DNA of 64,000 nucleotides from Candidatus Makana argininalis (GTDB taxonomy: Bacteria; Pseudomonadota; Gammaproteobacteria; Enterobacterales; Enterobacteriaceae), in the NCBI GenBank assembly GCA_044442785.1, contig JBISJT010000001.1, positions 48,831-112,830 of the forward strand. The letters run 5' to 3'. The position numbers and the translations under genes are program-made. Below are positions 11,889 through 50,253 of this stretch, in pieces. The notes below the pieces were generated by a model. The model ran no database searches and was not told the origin of the DNA. It was given only the letters and a program-made list of their open reading frames with translations. Positions within the stretch are counted from its first letter, which is position 1. Every line of letters begins with the position of its first letter.

Positions 11889-12470
11889 ATGTTAAATAAT
11901 ATTAAAAAAGAAATTTTAGAAAGTAAAAATTTTAAAAAAAAAAATGAAGATAAAAATATAAAATTAGAAAATAAAAAAAATCAAATTAAATCACTAAATG
12001 AAAAAAAAAAATATATTGAAAAATTAGAAACATCTTTAAAAGAGGTAAAAGAAATATCAAATAACAATTTTATACGATATAGAGCTGAAATAGAAAATTT
12101 AATAAAAAGAAATGAAAAAGATATAGAAAAATCAAATAAATTTGCTATTGAAAAATTTGCTATTGAATTATTACCAGTGATTGACAGTTTAGAAAAAACT
12201 ATAGATATGTTTGATAAAAAAAATTTAGAACTAAAATCTATTTTAGAAGGTTTAAATTTAACATTGAAATTTTTATTAAATACTTTCAATAAATTTGGAA
12301 TTAATGTGATAAATAATATAAATGTAATATTTGATCCTAATATTCATCAAGCAATGAATTTAATAACATCAGAAAAATTTAAATCTAATCATGTTATTAA
12401 TATAATACAAAAAGGATATATACTGAACGGAAGATTAATTCGACCCGCAATGGTAAGTGTATCAAAATAA
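11889..12470 (+). CDS. grpE: nucleotide exchange factor GrpE
   Basis: 193 aa. Has a coiled-coil N-terminal part, RYRAEIEN, and C-terminal GY.LNGRLIRPAMV. Confidence 0.9.
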   Translation: MLNNIKKEILESKNFKKKNEDKNIKLENKKNQIKSLNEKKKYIEKLETSLKEVKEISNNNFIRYRAEIENLIKRNEKDIEKSNKFAIEKFAIELLPVIDSLEKTIDMFDKKNLELKSILEGLNLTLKFLLNTFNKFGINVINNINVIFDPNIHQAMNLITSEKFKSNHVINIIQKGYILNGRLIRPAMVSVSK

Positions 12471-12546
12471 ATTTTTTTAAAAAAAATTTATTATAATCGC
12501 TATGATAAATAGCGATTATAATAAATTTTTTTTAAAAAAATTTATT
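12466..12546. terminator. 81-bp perfect hairpin (38-bp arms, 5-nt loop) between convergent grpE and ung; candidate bidirectional terminator
   Basis: Every base from 12466-12503 pairs with 12546-12509 (checked base by base). The loop is 12504-12508. The left arm overlaps the grpE stop codon. Confidence 0.5.
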
Positions 12547-12592: not shown

Positions 12593-13243
12593 TCAATTAA
12601 TAGGTGTTTTTATAATTTTTTTTAAAATAAAATTAGTTTTAGAAAAATGTTTACAACCTAAAAATCCATAATGATATGATAATGGACTTGGATGATAAGT
12701 TTTTAAAATAAAATGTTTATTAGAATTTATAAATTTAATTTTTTTTTGAGCATAATTACCCCATAATAAAAAAATTACTTCTTTTAAGTGATCGTTGATT
12801 ATTTGAATAACTAAATCTGTAAATTTTTCCCAACCTATATTTGCATGTGAATTTGGTTTTTTATGTTCAACTGTTAAAATAGAATTTAATAAAAATACAC
12901 CTTGATCTGACCAGCTTTTCAAAAATCCATGTTTAGGTATAACAAAATTACTAATATCGTTATTTAATTCTTTATAAATATTTTTTCATGAAGGAGGTAT
13001 TTTGATACCTTTATTAACAGAAAAAGCTAAACCATTAGCTTGATTAAAATCACAATATGGATCCTGTCCTATTATAACTACTTTTATATTTTTAAATTTA
13101 GTAAATTTAAAAACATTAAATACTTCATTTGAATTTGGATGTATTATTTTACCATATGATCTTTTTTTATTAATAAAATCAATCATTTTTTTAAAAAAAA
13201 TCATTTTTTTAACATCAAATAAAACATCAGACCATGTATTCAT
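12593..13243 (-). pseudogene. ung: uracil-DNA glycosylase, single in-frame TGA (12986-12988) in an otherwise continuous frame
   Basis: The two track ORFs (12986..13243 and 12593..12922) are in the same frame. The 63 nt between them read KNIYKELNNDISNFVIPKHGF, versus E. coli [21 protein letters not shown]. The GQDPY and HPSPLS motifs are present. Confidence 0.75.
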
Positions 13244-26938: not shown

Positions 26939-27181
26939 TTTTAACCCAATTAATAAATTTAATTTTTTTTGTAAGTTATTTTAATTTAAAATAATATTTA
27001 TTATTAAATTAATTTAATAATAAATATTAAATAAAAAATTAATTTTTTAAATTATTTTAATTAATTTTAAATAAAAAAAAACTATTTTCAATATAAAAAT
27101 TTTAATTAAATTAATTAAAATTTTTAAAAAAAATAAATTTATTTTAAAAAAAATATATCAATTTAATTGATGTTTTAATTA

Positions 27182-28319: not shown

Positions 28320-28618
28320 TTATTTTATAATAAATAATAATAATTATTAAAATAAAATTTATATAAATTTTATTTTAATAATTATACAACATAATCAAAT
28401 TATTTATTTTATTTTTTAAATTAATTTATTTGATTATGTTTAAATATTTGTAAAATTTGTAATTTAACTAAAAAATTAATAGATTAAATAATATTAGAAA
28501 AATAACTTATTTTTTTTAAAAATGAGTTTATATATTTTAAAACATATATTTATTTTTAATAAATTTATTGAAAAATATTTAAAAATAATATTATTAATAT
28601 TTATTAAATGATAATAAA

Positions 28619-35438: not shown

Positions 35439-36131
35439 ATGATTTTTAATAAACTAGTATTAGTAAGACATGGTGAAAGTTTATGGAATAAAGAAAATAA
35501 ATTTACTGGATGGACTGATATTGATTTATCTAAGCATGGTAAAAAAGAATCTATAAATGCTGTAAAAAAATTAAAAAAAAATAAATTTTTATTTGATATA
35601 GCATATACGTCAATGTTAACTAGAGCTATACATACTTTATGGATTTTATTATATAAATTAAATTTATCATGGATACCTGTAAAAAAATCTTGGCGTTTAA
35701 ATGAAAGACATTATGGATATTTACAAGGCATGAACAAAGAATTAGCTATTAAAAAATATGGAATAAAAAAAATACAAAAATGGCGTCGCAGTGTTAATAG
35801 TTTACCCCCAGAAATAAATATACATGATAAAAGATTTCCAGGAAAAGAGATTAGATATTCAAATTTAGACAAAAAATATTTGCCTCTTTCTGAAAGTTTA
35901 TTATTAACTATTAAAAGAATTTTTCCTTATTGGAAAAAAGAAATTTTACCAAAAATAAAAAATGGTTCAAAAATTATAATTGTAGCACATGGTAATTCTA
36001 TTAGATCTTTAATTAAAATAATTGACAATTTAAGTGAAGATAATCTTGAAAAATTAAATATACCAACAGCCAAACCTTTAATTTATGAATTTGATAAAAA
36101 TATTAAACCGATTAACAAATATTATATTTAA
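35439..36131 (+). CDS. gpmA: 2,3-bisphosphoglycerate-dependent phosphoglycerate mutase
   Basis: 230 aa. Contains LVRHGESLWNKENKFTGW, RLNERHYG and VAHGNSIR. Confidence 0.95.
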   Translation: MIFNKLVLVRHGESLWNKENKFTGWTDIDLSKHGKKESINAVKKLKKNKFLFDIAYTSMLTRAIHTLWILLYKLNLSWIPVKKSWRLNERHYGYLQGMNKELAIKKYGIKKIQKWRRSVNSLPPEINIHDKRFPGKEIRYSNLDKKYLPLSESLLLTIKRIFPYWKKEILPKIKNGSKIIIVAHGNSIRSLIKIIDNLSEDNLEKLNIPTAKPLIYEFDKNIKPINKYYI

Positions 36132-36196
36132 ACTAACTTATAAATATTAAAATTATTTAACAAATAATTTTAATATTTATAAGTTAGTTTAAATAT
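36124..36196. terminator. 73-nt perfect hairpin (35-bp arms, 3-nt loop) between convergent gpmA and rplS; candidate bidirectional terminator
   Basis: 36124-36158 pairs with 36196-36162 (checked base by base). It overlaps the gpmA stop codon and ends 8 nt from the rplS stop. Confidence 0.5.
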
Positions 36197-36551: not shown

Positions 36552-36999
36552 ATTTAATTATTACCTTTTTAATTTTTTAAAAAAATAGATTTTTGATATA
36601 TTTTTAAAATTAATAATCTTTAATTTTTTATAAAATTAAAATAAAATATTAAATTAAATTTATTTAATAAGAAATTGTTATTTATAATTAATAATAAATA
36701 ATATTAATTATTTATTAATTATTAATAAATAAAAGATGTTTATTAAATTTATTAAAATAATTTTATATAAAATAGTATAAATATTTATACTTTTTTTTAA
36801 TTAATTATATATTTAATAATAATTAAATATATAATTAATTAAAAAAAAAATAAAATAAAAAGTATAAAATATATTATTTGAATTATAAAAAAGTTTTTAA
36901 AAAAAAAAATTATATTTTTAATATAAAAATTAAAAACATATAATTTTATTTATTATATATTTTAATTATTTTTGTTAAATAAATATTAATTGAAATTAT

Positions 37000-37407: not shown

Positions 37408-37529
37408 TTAATTCCATTTTAAATTATTAAAATTAAAATAATTTATTAATATATAATAAATATTAAAATAATTTTATTTATTATATATTAATAAATTATT
37501 TTAATTTTAATAATTTAAAATGGAATTAA
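37408..37529. repeat. 122-bp inverted repeat (perfect 55-bp arms, 12-nt loop) immediately upstream of and overlapping the recA 5' end
   Basis: 37408-37462 pairs with 37529-37475 base for base. The right arm contains ATGGAATTAA (the first ATG of the recA ORF), and the left arm contains its mirror image. Confidence 0.9.
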
Positions 37530-38527
37530 TAATGATTGAAGATAATGAAAAAACAAAATCTTTAAAAAAAGTGTTAGATCAAATAGAAAAACAATTTGGA
37601 AAAGGTTCAATAATGAGATTAGGAGAAGATCGTTCTATGGATGTTGAAACAATTTCAACAGGATCTCTTTCTTTAGATATTGCACTAGGATCAGGAGGTC
37701 TTCCTTTAGGTAGAATTGTTGAAATATATGGACCAGAATCATCTGGCAAAACAACTTTGACATTACAAATTATAGCAACATTTCAAAAAAAAAATAAAAT
37801 TTGTGCTTTTATCGATGCAGAACATGCTCTAGATCCAATATATGCTAAACAAGTTGGTGTTGATATTGATAATCTTCTTTGTTCTCAACCTGATAATGGA
37901 GAACAAGCTTTAGAAATTTGTGATTCTTTAACAAAGTCTGGTGCAGTAGATTTAATAGTTGTAGATTCTGTTGCAGCTCTTACACCAAAAGCAGAAATTG
38001 ATGGAGAGATAGGAGATTCACATATGGGTTTGACTGCTAGAATGATGAGCCAAGCTATGAGAAAATTATCTGTAAATTTAAAAAATTCGAATACTTTATT
38101 AATATTTATAAATCAAATACGTATGAAAATAGGTATAACATATGGAAATCCAGAGACAACAACAGGAGGTAATGCACTTAAATTTTATTCATCAGTGAGA
38201 TTGGATATTAGACGTATAGGATATATTAAAAAAGATGATTTAATAATAGGCAATGATACTAGAGTTAAAGTAATTAAAAATAAAATATCTGTTCCTTTTA
38301 AACAAGCAGAATTTCAAATTATATATGGTAATGGTATTAATGTTATTAATGAACTTATAAATATTAGTTTAAACTATAATTTAATTAAAAGATCTGGATC
38401 TTGGTATAGTTATAATGGTAAAAAAATAGGACAAGGTAAATTAAATGTTGAGAAATTTTTAAAATATAAACCAGAAATATATAAAAAAATATACAATAAA
38501 ATAAGAACATTAATTTTTAAAAAATAA
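37520..38527 (+). CDS. recA: recombinase RecA
   Basis: Very high similarity to E. coli RecA through the core ([70 protein letters not shown]). The second ATG at 37532 (MIEDNEK, versus MAIDENK) is the likelier true start. Confidence 0.95.
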
Positions 38528-46444: not shown

Positions 46445-46606
46445 ATTAAATCTCTTTTTTTATATTAAATAAATTTAAAAAAATATTATTACTTAAAATC
46501 AAATATTTATAAAAAAATAATTAAATAAAATTTATATAGTTATATGATTTATAATTTTTTTTAAAATATTTAAAATATTAAAAATTATGTTATAATAAAA
46601 TTATAT

Positions 46607-46680
46607 GGTGATTGTAGCTCAGTTGGAAGAGCCCTGGATTGTGATTCCAGTAGTCATGGGTTCGAATCCCATCAATCACC
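46607..46680 (+). tRNA. hisR: tRNA-His (GUG) with encoded G-1
   Basis: GGTGATTGTAGCTCAGTTGGAAGAGCCCTGGATTGTGATTCCAGTAGTCATGGGTTCGAATCCCATCAATCACC resembles E. coli hisR. Confidence 0.9.
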
Positions 46681-46703
46681 CATATATAAATATTATTTTT
46701 TCT

Positions 46704-46777
46704 CGGCGAGTAGCGCAGCTTGGTAGCGCAACTGGTTTGGGACCAGTAGGTCGGAGGTTCAAATCCTCTCTCGCCGA
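46704..46777 (+). tRNA. proM: tRNA-Pro (UGG)
   Basis: CGGCGAGTAGCGCAGCTTGGTAGCGCAACTGGTTTGGGACCAGTAGGTCGGAGGTTCAAATCCTCTCTCGCCGA. Confidence 0.9.
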
Positions 46778-46831
46778 TAATTCTTAAAAATATAAATTTA
46801 TTTAATTAAATTAATTTTTTAATAAATTCTT

Positions 46832-47278
46832 TTAAGATATAATATTAACATTAAAATTGATTATTACTGCTTTGCTTATTTTTATTTTTATTTTATGTTT
46901 TCCAATATTTCTTAATACACCATTAGGTAAAATTATATCATTTTTTTTAATATTTATACCTTTTTTAATTATTTCTTCAGATATATCTTTAGATCTTATT
47001 GATCCAAATAGTTTACCTTCTGATCCTGATTTCGCTTTAATAATTATTTTTTTTAAATTATTTATTTTAAATAATTTTTCTTTATTATAATTTTCTAATA
47101 TTTCTTTATTGTTTTTTAATTTGTCTTTTATCTGTGAAAAATATTTAGAATTTTTTTGATTACATTGAATAGCCTTTCCAAACGGAAATAAATAATTTCT
47201 AGCATATCCAGATTTTACATTAATTTTTTTACCTAATGATCCTAATTTTTTAACTTCACTTATAAGAATAACATTCAT
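46832..47278 (-). CDS. rplI: 50S ribosomal protein L9
   Basis: 148 aa. MNVILISEVKKLGSLGKKINVKSGYARNYL matches the L9 N-terminus. Confidence 0.95.
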   Translation of the reverse strand: MNVILISEVKKLGSLGKKINVKSGYARNYLFPFGKAIQCNQKNSKYFSQIKDKLKNNKEILENYNKEKLFKINNLKKIIIKAKSGSEGKLFGSIRSKDISEEIIKKGINIKKNDIILPNGVLRNIGKHKIKIKISKAVIINFNVNIIS

Positions 47279-47311
47279 TTTATTTTCCTAATTTATATAA
47301 TAAAATTTATT

Positions 47312-47542
47312 CTATAAACTATGATTATCATTATATGGTAATAATGAAAGATATCTAGCTATTTTAATAGCTTTAGAAAGTTGACGTTGGTATTTTGATT
47401 TTGTACCTGTAATTCTTTTTGGAATTATTTTACCACTTTCAGTTATATACTTTTTAAGTGTATTTATATCTTTATAATCAATAAAATCAATTTTTTCTGC
47501 AGTAAATCGACAAAATTTACGTCTTCTAAAATATTTTATCAT
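47312..47542 (-). CDS. rpsR: 30S ribosomal protein S18
   Basis: 76 aa. Contains [17 protein letters not shown] and ITGT..KYQRQL..AIK.AR.L.LLPY. Confidence 0.95.
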
Positions 47543-47604
47543 AATAAAACCTATTGAGTAATTTATTTTTAAAAAATTTAAAAAAATATTTAAAAATATT
47601 TAAT

Positions 47605-47949
47605 TTATTTTTTTTTAAATTTTTTTTCTTCTTTAAATTTCATTATATAAGAATTTTCTTTAATTATATTTTTAACTTTTAAAATAAAAATTCTAATAAT
47701 TAATTCATTAAATTTAATAATATTTTTTATTTTTTCTAAATTTTCAAAATTAATTTCTACGTTTATTAAAAAATAATAAGCTTTTATTTCTTTATTAATA
47801 CTATAAGATAAATTACGACACCCCCAATATTCTTTTCTATGAATTAAACCTGAATGTTTTTTAATAAAATCAGTAAATTTTTTAACAATATTTAAAATTT
47901 TTTCTATTTTATCAGGATTAAAAATAAGTACTATTTCATAATTTAACAA
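47605..47949 (-). CDS. rpsF: 30S ribosomal protein S6 (TTG start)
   Basis: 114 aa. (M)LNYEIVLIFNPD versus E. coli MRHYEIVFMVHPD. AAGGAG lies 9 nt upstream of the TTG. Confidence 0.9.
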   Translation of the reverse strand: MLNYEIVLIFNPDKIEKILNIVKKFTDFIKKHSGLIHRKEYWGCRNLSYSINKEIKAYYFLINVEINFENLEKIKNIIKFNELIIRIFILKVKNIIKENSYIMKFKEEKKFKKK

Positions 47950-48084
47950 ATAATTAATCTCCTTAATTTAAAAATGAATTAATAATAAAAATTAATTAAT
48001 TTTAATATTTATTATATAATAAATATTAAAATTAATTAATTTTTATTATTAATTCATTTTTAAATTAAGGAGATTAATTATTTG
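47947..48084. repeat. 138-bp perfect palindrome spanning the whole rpsF/ruvX spacer including both start codons
   Basis: All 69 base pairs (i with 96031-i) were checked individually. The first mismatch is at 47946/48085. Confidence 0.95.
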
Positions 48085-48503
48085 ACATATAAAAATATAA
48101 TATCATTTGATTTTGGGACAAAAAATATTGGAGTCGCTATAGGTCAATTTATAACTTGTACAGCTCGACCTCTTAAAGAAATCAAAAAAAAAAAAAAATT
48201 TATTGGGAAAAAATAAGTAAATTATTAGATGAATGGAAGCCATATGTGATAATAATAGGATTACCATTAAATATGGATGGAAGCGAACAAATAATAACTA
48301 ATCTTTCACGTAATTTTGCTAATAAAATTAAAATTAAATTTGGTTATAAAATTAAAATGCAAGATGAAAGATTAACTACTATAGAAGCTCGCGAAAAATT
48401 ATTTAATAAATTTGGTTATAAAGCTTTAAAAAAAACAAATTCTATTTCAGCTGTTATAATTTTAGAAAATTGGATTAAATTATATTTAAAAAAAAAAATA
48501 TAA
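48082..48503 (+). pseudogene. ruvX: Holliday junction resolvase-like / pre-16S rRNA nuclease RuvX (YqgF), frameshifted inside an A15 run
   Basis: TTG 48082 (AAGGAG 9 nt upstream) reads [38 protein letters not shown], then stops at 48214. The other frame continues [27 protein letters not shown].. to 48503. Both halves match E. coli YqgF, and one extra A in the run 48184-48198 joins them. Confidence 0.8.
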
Positions 48504-48520
48504 TAAATTGTTTATGTTTT

Positions 48521-48549
48521 ACCCCCCCTTAAAACAAAAAGAGGGGGGT
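48521..48549. terminator. G+C-rich stem-loop between convergent ruvX and groEL
   Basis: ACCCCCC(C)TT-AAAACAAAAAGA-GGGGGGT. The C/G stem of 6-7 bp is the only G+C-rich intergenic motif in the window. TTT follows on the plus strand. Confidence 0.5.
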
Positions 48550-48594
48550 TTATAATAAATAAAAAAAAAGAATAATGTATTTTTTTATTTATTA

Positions 48595-50253
<1,659 letters not shown>

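Follow-up and report, generated by a model that had tools for sequence, protein, structure and literature searches.

A perfect 138-bp palindrome between rpsF and ruvX of 'Candidatus Makana argininalis' with arms that appear to evolve in concert

Long perfect palindromes of bacteria are usually regarded as fragile liabilities, and compensatory evolution of the two sides of a stem is usually read as selection on structure. The spacer between the divergent genes rpsF (ribosomal protein S6) and ruvX of 'Candidatus Makana argininalis' raises the question of how a long palindrome comes to lie between two genes and how it is kept perfect. This organism is a psyllid co-symbiont with a genome of ~277 kb and 19% GC, and the DNA analyzed here is a stretch of 64,000 nucleotides of this genome (positions 48,831 to 112,830 of contig JBISJT010000001.1, assembly GCA_044442785.1), which is termed the window. 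Makana is a Morganella-like co-symbiont of Hawaiian Pariaconus psyllids, with genomes of <300 kb and ~19.4% GC that are reported to retain recBCD and mutS (PMC11425488). Neither palindromes nor inverted repeats are mentioned in the Makana genome paper (PMC11425488).

When base i of the window is paired with base 96031-i, 69 of 69 pairs are complementary outward from the axis, and the first mismatch is an A/A pair at 47946/48085. The palindrome consists of 128 A/T and 10 G/C bases, has no spacer between its arms, and is longer than the 132-nt rpsF/ruvX spacer by exactly the two start codons. The first-pass annotation of this DNA had described a perfect palindrome of this length with its first mismatch at these positions, equal to the whole spacer plus both start codons, with AAGGAG 9 nt upstream of each TTG, and re-pairing of the bases and inspection of both Shine-Dalgarno (SD) boxes agree with this description. 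It had also stated that a palindrome of this length is not expected by chance, and this statement holds. The number of centers with arms of at least 69 nt expected by chance is 6e-28 for the composition of the window and 1e-16 for pure 50/50 A/T, and the longest arm in shuffles keeping the local composition (n=100) is 11.9 nt on average and never exceeds 19 nt. The perfect 138-bp palindrome between rpsF and ruvX is a real feature.

To compare this spacer between lineages, the orthologous regions of four Makana relatives were fetched by exact-protein matching. These regions are L001 (GCA_051307355.1, from a later project than the four genomes of the Makana genome paper), L002 (GCA_044442745.1), L003 (GCA_044442865.1), and L004 and L085, which are the two ends of the GCA_044442725.1 contig. 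Perfect palindromes are present at the orthologous site, with the same center, in L001 (134 bp), L002 (134 bp) and L004/L085 (152 bp), so that four of the five Makana genomes carry a palindrome with arms of 67-76 nt and no spacer. Between the four genomes, 27 of the 77 aligned arm columns vary, and each change in one arm has its mirror image in the other. These changes include some that involve G/C in L002 and an insertion of 6-8 nt in L004. Any two of these genomes differ, per arm, by 4-14 substitutions and 1-10 gap columns. Within the genomes, no mismatch is found in ~270 arm pairs, the outermost base of the start codon aside; the sole asymmetry of the arms is this outermost base in L001 and L004, which have TTT on the ruvX side and TTG on the rpsF side. 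The identity of the arms within a genome is far above that between genomes, as in arm-to-arm gene conversion.

The concatenated pgi, rplI, rpsR and groEL sequences differ by 8-10% in every pair of Makana genomes, and the tree made from them is nearly star-shaped. The palindrome predates the split of the Makana lineages, because perfect palindromes are present in four of five lineages at this coding divergence. It is not of recent origin, because independently evolving arms would show several differences per genome, and the arm pairs show none. Base-by-base purifying selection is also excluded by the strong variation of the ~45 nt in mid-arm; the central 10-12 nt and the outer ~23 nt, at the SD end, are conserved in the four genomes, and the latter sequence, AATTAAGGAGATTAA(T/A)TATTT(G), is nearly invariant. 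The first-pass annotation had proposed a comparison of the orthologous spacer and had left a choice between a very recent origin and ongoing homogenization. The comparison finds perfect palindromes in three of the four relatives with all changes mirrored, which speaks for ongoing homogenization, and the presence of these palindromes in lineages 8-10% apart speaks against a very recent origin. At the level of sequence, this comparison demonstrates that the arms evolve in concert by continual arm-to-arm homogenization. It is very probable that the palindrome is both real and maintained in this manner.

The palindrome between the divergent genes rpsB and map behaves alike. All five Makana genomes have it in perfect form (arms of 41, 51, 51, 45 and 49 nt; 83-105 bp), the four relatives in regions L086-L089, of which L087 belongs to the L003 genome. 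The genomes differ from one another in 25 of 53 arm columns, and each change, indels included, has its mirror image in the other arm. The symmetry reaches as far as the SD boxes of rpsB and of map, which are not alike. This locus is a second, independent demonstration of arm homogenization. The comparison of the two loci shows that symmetry halts, as a rule, where gene-specific signals start, and that the rpsF/ruvX site is special in that the mirror has engulfed the SD box and the start codon. The positions of both palindromes, their genes and the other inverted repeats of the window are summarized in Table 1.

Table 1. Positions of the palindromes, other inverted repeats and associated genes (window positions unless a relative is named)
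Feature	Position	Strand	Remarks
Perfect palindrome, 138 bp, 69-nt arms, no spacer	47947-48084	both	Axis between 48015/48016
Left arm: 66-nt rpsF leader and TTG start	47947-48015	-	From palindrome pairing
Right arm: mirror copy, ruvX leader and TTG	48016-48084	+	From palindrome pairing
SD box AAGGAG of rpsF	47959-47964	-	Reads CTCCTT on +; 9 nt 5' of TTG 47949-47947
SD box AAGGAG of ruvX	48067-48072	+	9 nt 5' of TTG 48082-48084
Conserved core, two overlapping outward TATAAT, candidate bidirectional -10	48004-48027		TATAAT 48015-48020 (+) and 48016-48011 (-)
rpsF (ribosomal protein S6), 114 aa	47605-47949	-	First gene of rpsF-rpsR-rplI; Pfam PF01250, E = 2e-20
ruvX (yqgF), two ORFs by frameshift	48082-48503	+	Pfam PF03652 matches both pieces
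Perfect palindrome, 41-nt arms, 1-nt loop	16976-17058		map/rpsB, divergent
The same palindrome in L086	19873-19975		rpsB/map
The same palindrome in L087	19936-20038		rpsB/map
The same palindrome in L088	19891-19981		rpsB/map
The same palindrome in L089	19857-19961		rpsB/map
Perfect inverted repeat, 55-nt arms, 12-nt loop	37408-37529		rpsP/recA, divergent; outer end abuts recA start region
recA	37520-38527		PF00154, E = 3e-136
Perfect hairpin, 38-nt arms	12466-12546		grpE/ung-like, convergent
Perfect hairpin, 35-nt arms	36124-36196		gpmA/rplS, convergent; specific to window lineage
Shorter inverted repeat	36791-36848		
Shorter inverted repeat, 46 bp	28340-28385		
Shorter inverted repeat, 38 bp	26992-27029		

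The explanation favored here, which is considered likely, is that an old inverted duplication of one regulatory cassette has been kept symmetric by hairpin-templated copying between the arms, bounded by coding selection. The cassette would run from an AT-rich core, with a TATAAT facing outward on each strand, through an unconstrained A/T leader of ~45 nt to AAGGAG, the strongest SD box in the window, and to a weak start codon 9 nt on. One copy would be used by rpsF and the mirror copy by ruvX, which would have lost its ancestral upstream partner yqgE on coming to adjoin rpsF. The arms would be identical as a result of frequent intramolecular copying of one arm, and not of base-by-base purifying selection. 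Symmetry would spread outward up to the point at which gene-specific selection stops it, which would be the first codon at rpsF/ruvX and the two different SD boxes at rpsB/map, and the same instability would at times delete the whole structure, as in one lineage. Three parts of this scheme are inferred, namely how the copying is done enzymatically, that the core acts as a promoter, and that ruvX captured the rpsF leader.

The gene starts of the window are consistent with the sharing of a cassette. Both TTG codons are in register with the N-termini of the protein families, since position 1 of the S6 profile of Pfam falls on residue 3 of the protein and position 2 of the RuvX profile on residue 5. 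Among the 56 gene starts of the window, AAGGAG is the only six-base SD match, and the remaining genes have ATG with AGGA, AAGG or GAG, or no recognizable SD box. The rpsF TTG is kept in all four palindrome-bearing genomes. The ruvX TTG is in frame in the window genome only; the ruvX frame of L001, L002 and L004 most likely opens at an ATT located 1 nt 5' of the mirrored TTG or TTT, and in L002 a TAA directly follows the mirrored TTG. The claim of the first-pass annotation that the two genes share TTG starts is therefore valid for the window genome and fails for ruvX in three relatives. The rpsF side looks like the constrained copy, because its TTG is kept in four genomes and that of ruvX in the window genome alone, and ruvX seems to fit its first codons to the output of the mirror. 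Makana ruvX is probably separated from its native upstream region, because in an outgroup reduced symbiont ruvX lies within the ancestral gshB-yqgE-ruvX order, and would hence take a copy of the rpsF cassette.

The likeliest routes of copying would be replication template switching across the hairpin (quasipalindrome correction) and cruciform- or RecA-mediated gene conversion. The two inverted arms, 69 nt each and loop-free, are able to pair within one strand. Divergent transcription, according to the twin-domain model, would load these AT-rich spacers with negative supercoils and favor extrusion, and arms of 41-76 nt are close to the lower length limit for RecA exchange. The recA gene is full-length in this ~277-kb genome, and the arms may also be equalized by conversion that depends on RecA or, within an extruded cruciform, by repair that MutS directs. 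Template switching rather than RecA conversion is slightly favored as the main route. Intramolecular template switching at the replication fork is the best-documented maker, extender and repairer of inverted repeats with a short loop or no spacer (PMC7202029, PMC5941160, PMC8794818, PMC13100816), and it perfects and maintains such repeats (PMC5941160, PMC8794818, PMC13100816).

The palindrome is absent from L003, in which a gap of 17 nt (L003 2984-3000) lies between the rpsF ATG and the ruvX frame, with no SD box on either side. The simplest reading is that the palindrome has been lost by hairpin deletion, as classically happens to palindromes; a minority deletion variant taken by the assembler is the alternative. 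Either way, the rpsF/ruvX structure is deletion-prone and not strictly essential. In the tree, L003 is weakly paired with the palindrome-bearing L004. The 5' signals of rpsF and ruvX each lie inside the other gene in L003, or else a minority deletion variant has been assembled.

The core of the palindrome differs from the rest of the arms in its conservation. The sequence TTTATTATATAATAAA across the axis is invariant in the four genomes, and the flanking arm sequence varies. The window has one further place with a 20-mer of this core, TATATAATAAATATTAAAAT, namely the inverted repeat between rpsP and recA, and this hints at a promoter core shared by the two spacers. For the proposal that the central core acts as a back-to-back promoter, which its two outward TATAAT sequences suggest, the chances are judged to be about even. 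A scan of 46500-49000 against Rfam (E <= 1) gives only tRNAs and sub-threshold noise, with neither the S6:S18 rpsF leader nor any other family in the spacer. Single arms folded as RNA are no better structured than shuffles (z about 0), and there is no sign of a leader riboswitch or attenuator, because single arms fold as shuffles do.

Several results weigh against the explanation by a copied cassette or limit its reach. A scan for sigma-70 promoter and terminator consensus sequences finds no site in the core and no acceptable -35, and the number of promoter hits is not above chance (6 hits versus 8.2 expected). The 17-nt spacer of L003, which has no SD box, means either that the cassette is dispensable or that a minority deletion variant was assembled. 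The present data do not separate template switching from conversion by RecA or from the repair of mismatches in an extruded cruciform. The four genomes of the genome paper are all Illumina/MEGAHIT metagenome assemblies, and a de Bruijn assembler could pop bubbles between near-identical arms and so hide a rare mismatch, so that the word 'perfect' may be slightly overstated. Finally, the survey of hairpin enrichment described below covers 64 kb of a 277-kb genome.

The alternative that survives best, although it is unlikely, is selection on pairing itself. According to this alternative, the cruciform, the hairpin or a 69-bp RNA hairpin of a read-through transcript is functional, for example as a sensor of supercoiling, a signal for replication or segregation, or a site for RNase III, and the symmetry is restored by compensatory mutation. 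The hairpin is very stable, since the palindrome folds as single-stranded DNA with -60.7 kcal/mol (z = -16.8), and the retention of the palindrome in four of five genomes and of the rpsB/map one in all five is what selection on pairing would give. Promoter-like hits on the minus strand in the 5' end of ruvX (48121-48094 and 48106-48077) might also produce an rpsF transcript spanning both arms. However, independent compensatory hits cannot produce A<->T transversions and indels of several bases that are mirrored, and no G:T intermediate, like no mismatch, is found in the ~270 arm pairs of the four genomes. One mismatch hardly matters to a stem of 69 bp, being nearly neutral, and selection is weak in bottlenecked endosymbionts. 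Templated copying is preferred to compensatory mutation because the indels are mirrored, intermediates are lacking and selection against one stem mismatch would be weak in such a symbiont. In addition, the L003 lineage lives without the structure, the site has no turning point of GC skew, and neither the Rfam scan nor the folding of single arms gives any sign of a functional RNA.

Still less probable is a large and recent inverted duplication of the rpsF leader that has remade the palindrome separately in each lineage. Lineage-specific perfect hairpins do arise de novo elsewhere in these genomes, and a single template-switch event can make a whole arm (PMC8794818). This alternative nevertheless needs at least four coincident events with the same center and end point, plus five at rpsB/map, and is mechanistically just the long-tract extreme of the copying favored here.

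The weakest alternative is an artefact, in which a fold-back chimera of the library or a collapse of the de Bruijn graph made a false palindrome or falsely perfected a quasi-palindrome. For the four genomes of the genome paper, MEGAHIT assembly of Illumina metagenomes with manual read-level curation gave single circular contigs at a mean coverage of ~1,218x (PMC11425488). The largest k of MEGAHIT is 141 (k141 in the contig name), and the circular GCA_044442725.1 contig is opened 11 nt inside the 152-bp palindrome, which leaves exactly 141 nt up to the far end of the palindrome (position 1 of L004/L085). Such short-read assembly, this break and the lack of a palindrome in L003 might all be taken as signs of an artefact, but the contig probably breaks there because a real palindrome of 152 bp exceeds k = 141, as would be predicted. 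The artefact is very improbable, and the worry of the first-pass annotation on this point is not borne out, since four assemblies of separate samples give four different sequences that are symmetric about the same center and end at the same start codon, the rpsB/map locus behaves alike in five assemblies, a false fold-back would continue into coding sequence rather than halt at a codon and would not set both N-termini in register with their protein families, and the coverage and read-level curation of the four published genomes also argue against it.

Some other roles and occurrences of the palindrome were considered and rejected. A replication origin is not indicated, as the cumulative GC skew falls steadily through 44-54 kb with no turning point, and gene orientation does not switch at the site, since all protein genes from 44.8 to 54.3 kb except ruvX lie on the minus strand. 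A hairpin telomere or protelomerase site was put aside because the contigs continue on each side into a unique flank, the two flanks being different, and because the genomes are reported to be circular; no search for a protelomerase was made. A search of metagenome contigs with AATTAAGGAGATTAAWTATTT gives 14 contigs with a single match each, which are read as chance matches, since a palindrome would match twice. A search of genome contigs with an alignment of RuvX gives, among the matches listed, only distant Enterobacterales and other Gammaproteobacteria and no Makana.

Long inverted repeats are not confined to these two spacers. In a repeat scan of the 64-kb window that allows short loops, perfect hairpins whose arms reach 30 nt or more are found in 3 of 10 divergent spacers, 2 of 11 convergent spacers and 0 of 39 co-directional spacers (p = 0.004 for strand-switch versus co-directional spacers, and p = 0.0065 for divergent versus co-directional spacers). 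The enrichment at divergent gene pairs for which the first-pass annotation had proposed a test is thus partly seen in the window; convergent spacers carry such repeats too. A ribosomal-protein operon, with rpsF, rpsB or rpsP, lies beside each of the three divergent cases. The hairpins at 26992, 28340 and 36124 are specific to the window lineage, and each relative also has private ones. The palindromes at 28340 and 26992 were considered as further conserved cases and rejected, as they are not kept in relatives; for the latter, which lies upstream of ptsH, no match is evident in the aligned relatives, and the alignment of this AT-rich sequence is ambiguous. Likewise, no comparable repeat is found in the region of the gpmA/rplS hairpin in the four relatives. 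Perfect palindromes seem to be born, or made perfect, and lost continually, because several hairpins are lineage-specific. A broader proposal is that ongoing hairpin-templated copying 'palindromizes' strand-switch spacers in general, at divergent pairs overwriting the promoter, leader and even start codon of one gene with the mirror image of its neighbor's, the neighbor in the three window cases being a ribosomal-protein operon that is highly expressed. This proposal is tentative, and its chances are put at slightly below even.

Several features near these repeats deserve mention. The hairpins in the convergent grpE/ung-like and gpmA/rplS spacers may be bidirectional terminators, and the latter fills nearly the whole spacer. 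The uracil-DNA glycosylase-like ORF (12593-12922) has a TTG start and covers only positions 44-140 of the 141 positions of the profile, and is maybe truncated or mis-started. The true start of recA is likely the ATG at 37532 (MIEDNEK...), and the upstream ATG at 37520 falls inside the inverted repeat. Upstream of ptsH, the motif TTTATATTGAAAATAGTTTTTTTTTATTTAA (window 27070-27105, minus strand; ~9850-9900 in L086-L089) is nearly invariant in the five genomes within an otherwise unalignable spacer, and is perhaps a regulatory site or promoter. The stop codon of groEL is abutted by a hairpin (48552-48595; arms of 16 nt, loop of 12 nt) that lies in the convergent spacer between ruvX and groEL. 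The frameshift of ruvX in the window genome is located in a run of 15 A (48184-48198) and gives the ORFs 48082-48216 and 48246-48503; in the relatives the A runs are shorter and RuvX is intact (136-142 aa). A homopolymer length error, a young pseudogene and rescue by transcriptional slippage are possible causes, and slippage that rescues frameshifted genes has been described for other endosymbionts.

To our knowledge, the published bacterial cases of template switching concern short arms that are usually looped. Compared with these cases, the Makana palindrome has no spacer, is 134-152 bp long, takes up a whole divergent spacer along with a start codon and the ribosome binding site of each gene, and is kept at 8-10% coding divergence. 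The likeness lies in arms that would be copied one from the other, as in template-switched inverted repeats (Ripley model; E. coli assays of the Lovett laboratory, PMC7202029; Lavi et al. 2018, PMC5941160; Monttinen & Loytynoja 2022, PMC8794818), in which multi-base changes and indels are likewise mirrored and perfect repeats are over-represented and conserved. Inverted repeats of yeast promoters are likewise able to expand outward, promoter regions included (PMC13100816). Ampliconic palindromes of the human Y and X chromosomes also have arms that are closer to each other within a genome than between species (PMC3723533, PMC8981503), and a non-recombining, clonal genome is a further likeness. 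These palindromes differ in that they extend over kilobases to megabases, include whole genes, have arms set apart by a unique spacer and require homologous recombination, whereas the Makana arms are 41-76 nt long with a loop of 0-12 nt. Plastid inverted repeats have a similar outcome, with concerted evolution of the arms by intrachromosomal conversion. The oriL of HSV-1 is a 144-bp perfect AT-centered palindrome between the divergent UL29 and UL30 genes and serves as a replication origin, to which a dedicated origin-binding protein binds. Its likeness to the Makana site in size, perfect symmetry and position between divergent genes is superficial, since the Makana site has neither the skew switch nor the switch of gene orientation that typify an origin, and several such palindromes are present in 64 kb. 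SbcCD-sensitive palindromes of E. coli (PMC3315005) and human PATRRs (PMC1851657) are likewise AT-rich, near-perfect, cruciform-prone and deletable. These are regarded as fragile liabilities, in contrast to the Makana palindrome, which occupies an essential regulatory position and is kept in most lineages.

The Makana palindromes appear to be a natural record of arm-to-arm copying that is much faster than mutation, as palindromes of 134-152 bp and 83-105 bp persist through divergence at the species level in a genome that is clonal and burdened by mutation. Such copying can give one gene an exact copy of the promoter, leader and ribosome binding site of another. For the study of genomes, covariation in stems need not imply a functional RNA, and short-read assemblers break at palindromes longer than k, as in the 152-bp case, or may skip them or be misled by them. 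For genomes that are unable to recombine with relatives, arm-to-arm copying may be a route to regulatory innovation and may shield regulatory DNA from Muller's ratchet. If spacer 'palindromization' is true, regulatory regions of these symbionts would be acquired, shared and kept free of mutations by concerted evolution. It would then be a miniature bacterial analogue of the Y-chromosome palindromes, and could be part of the reason for the retention of recA, recBCD and mutS in such a small genome.

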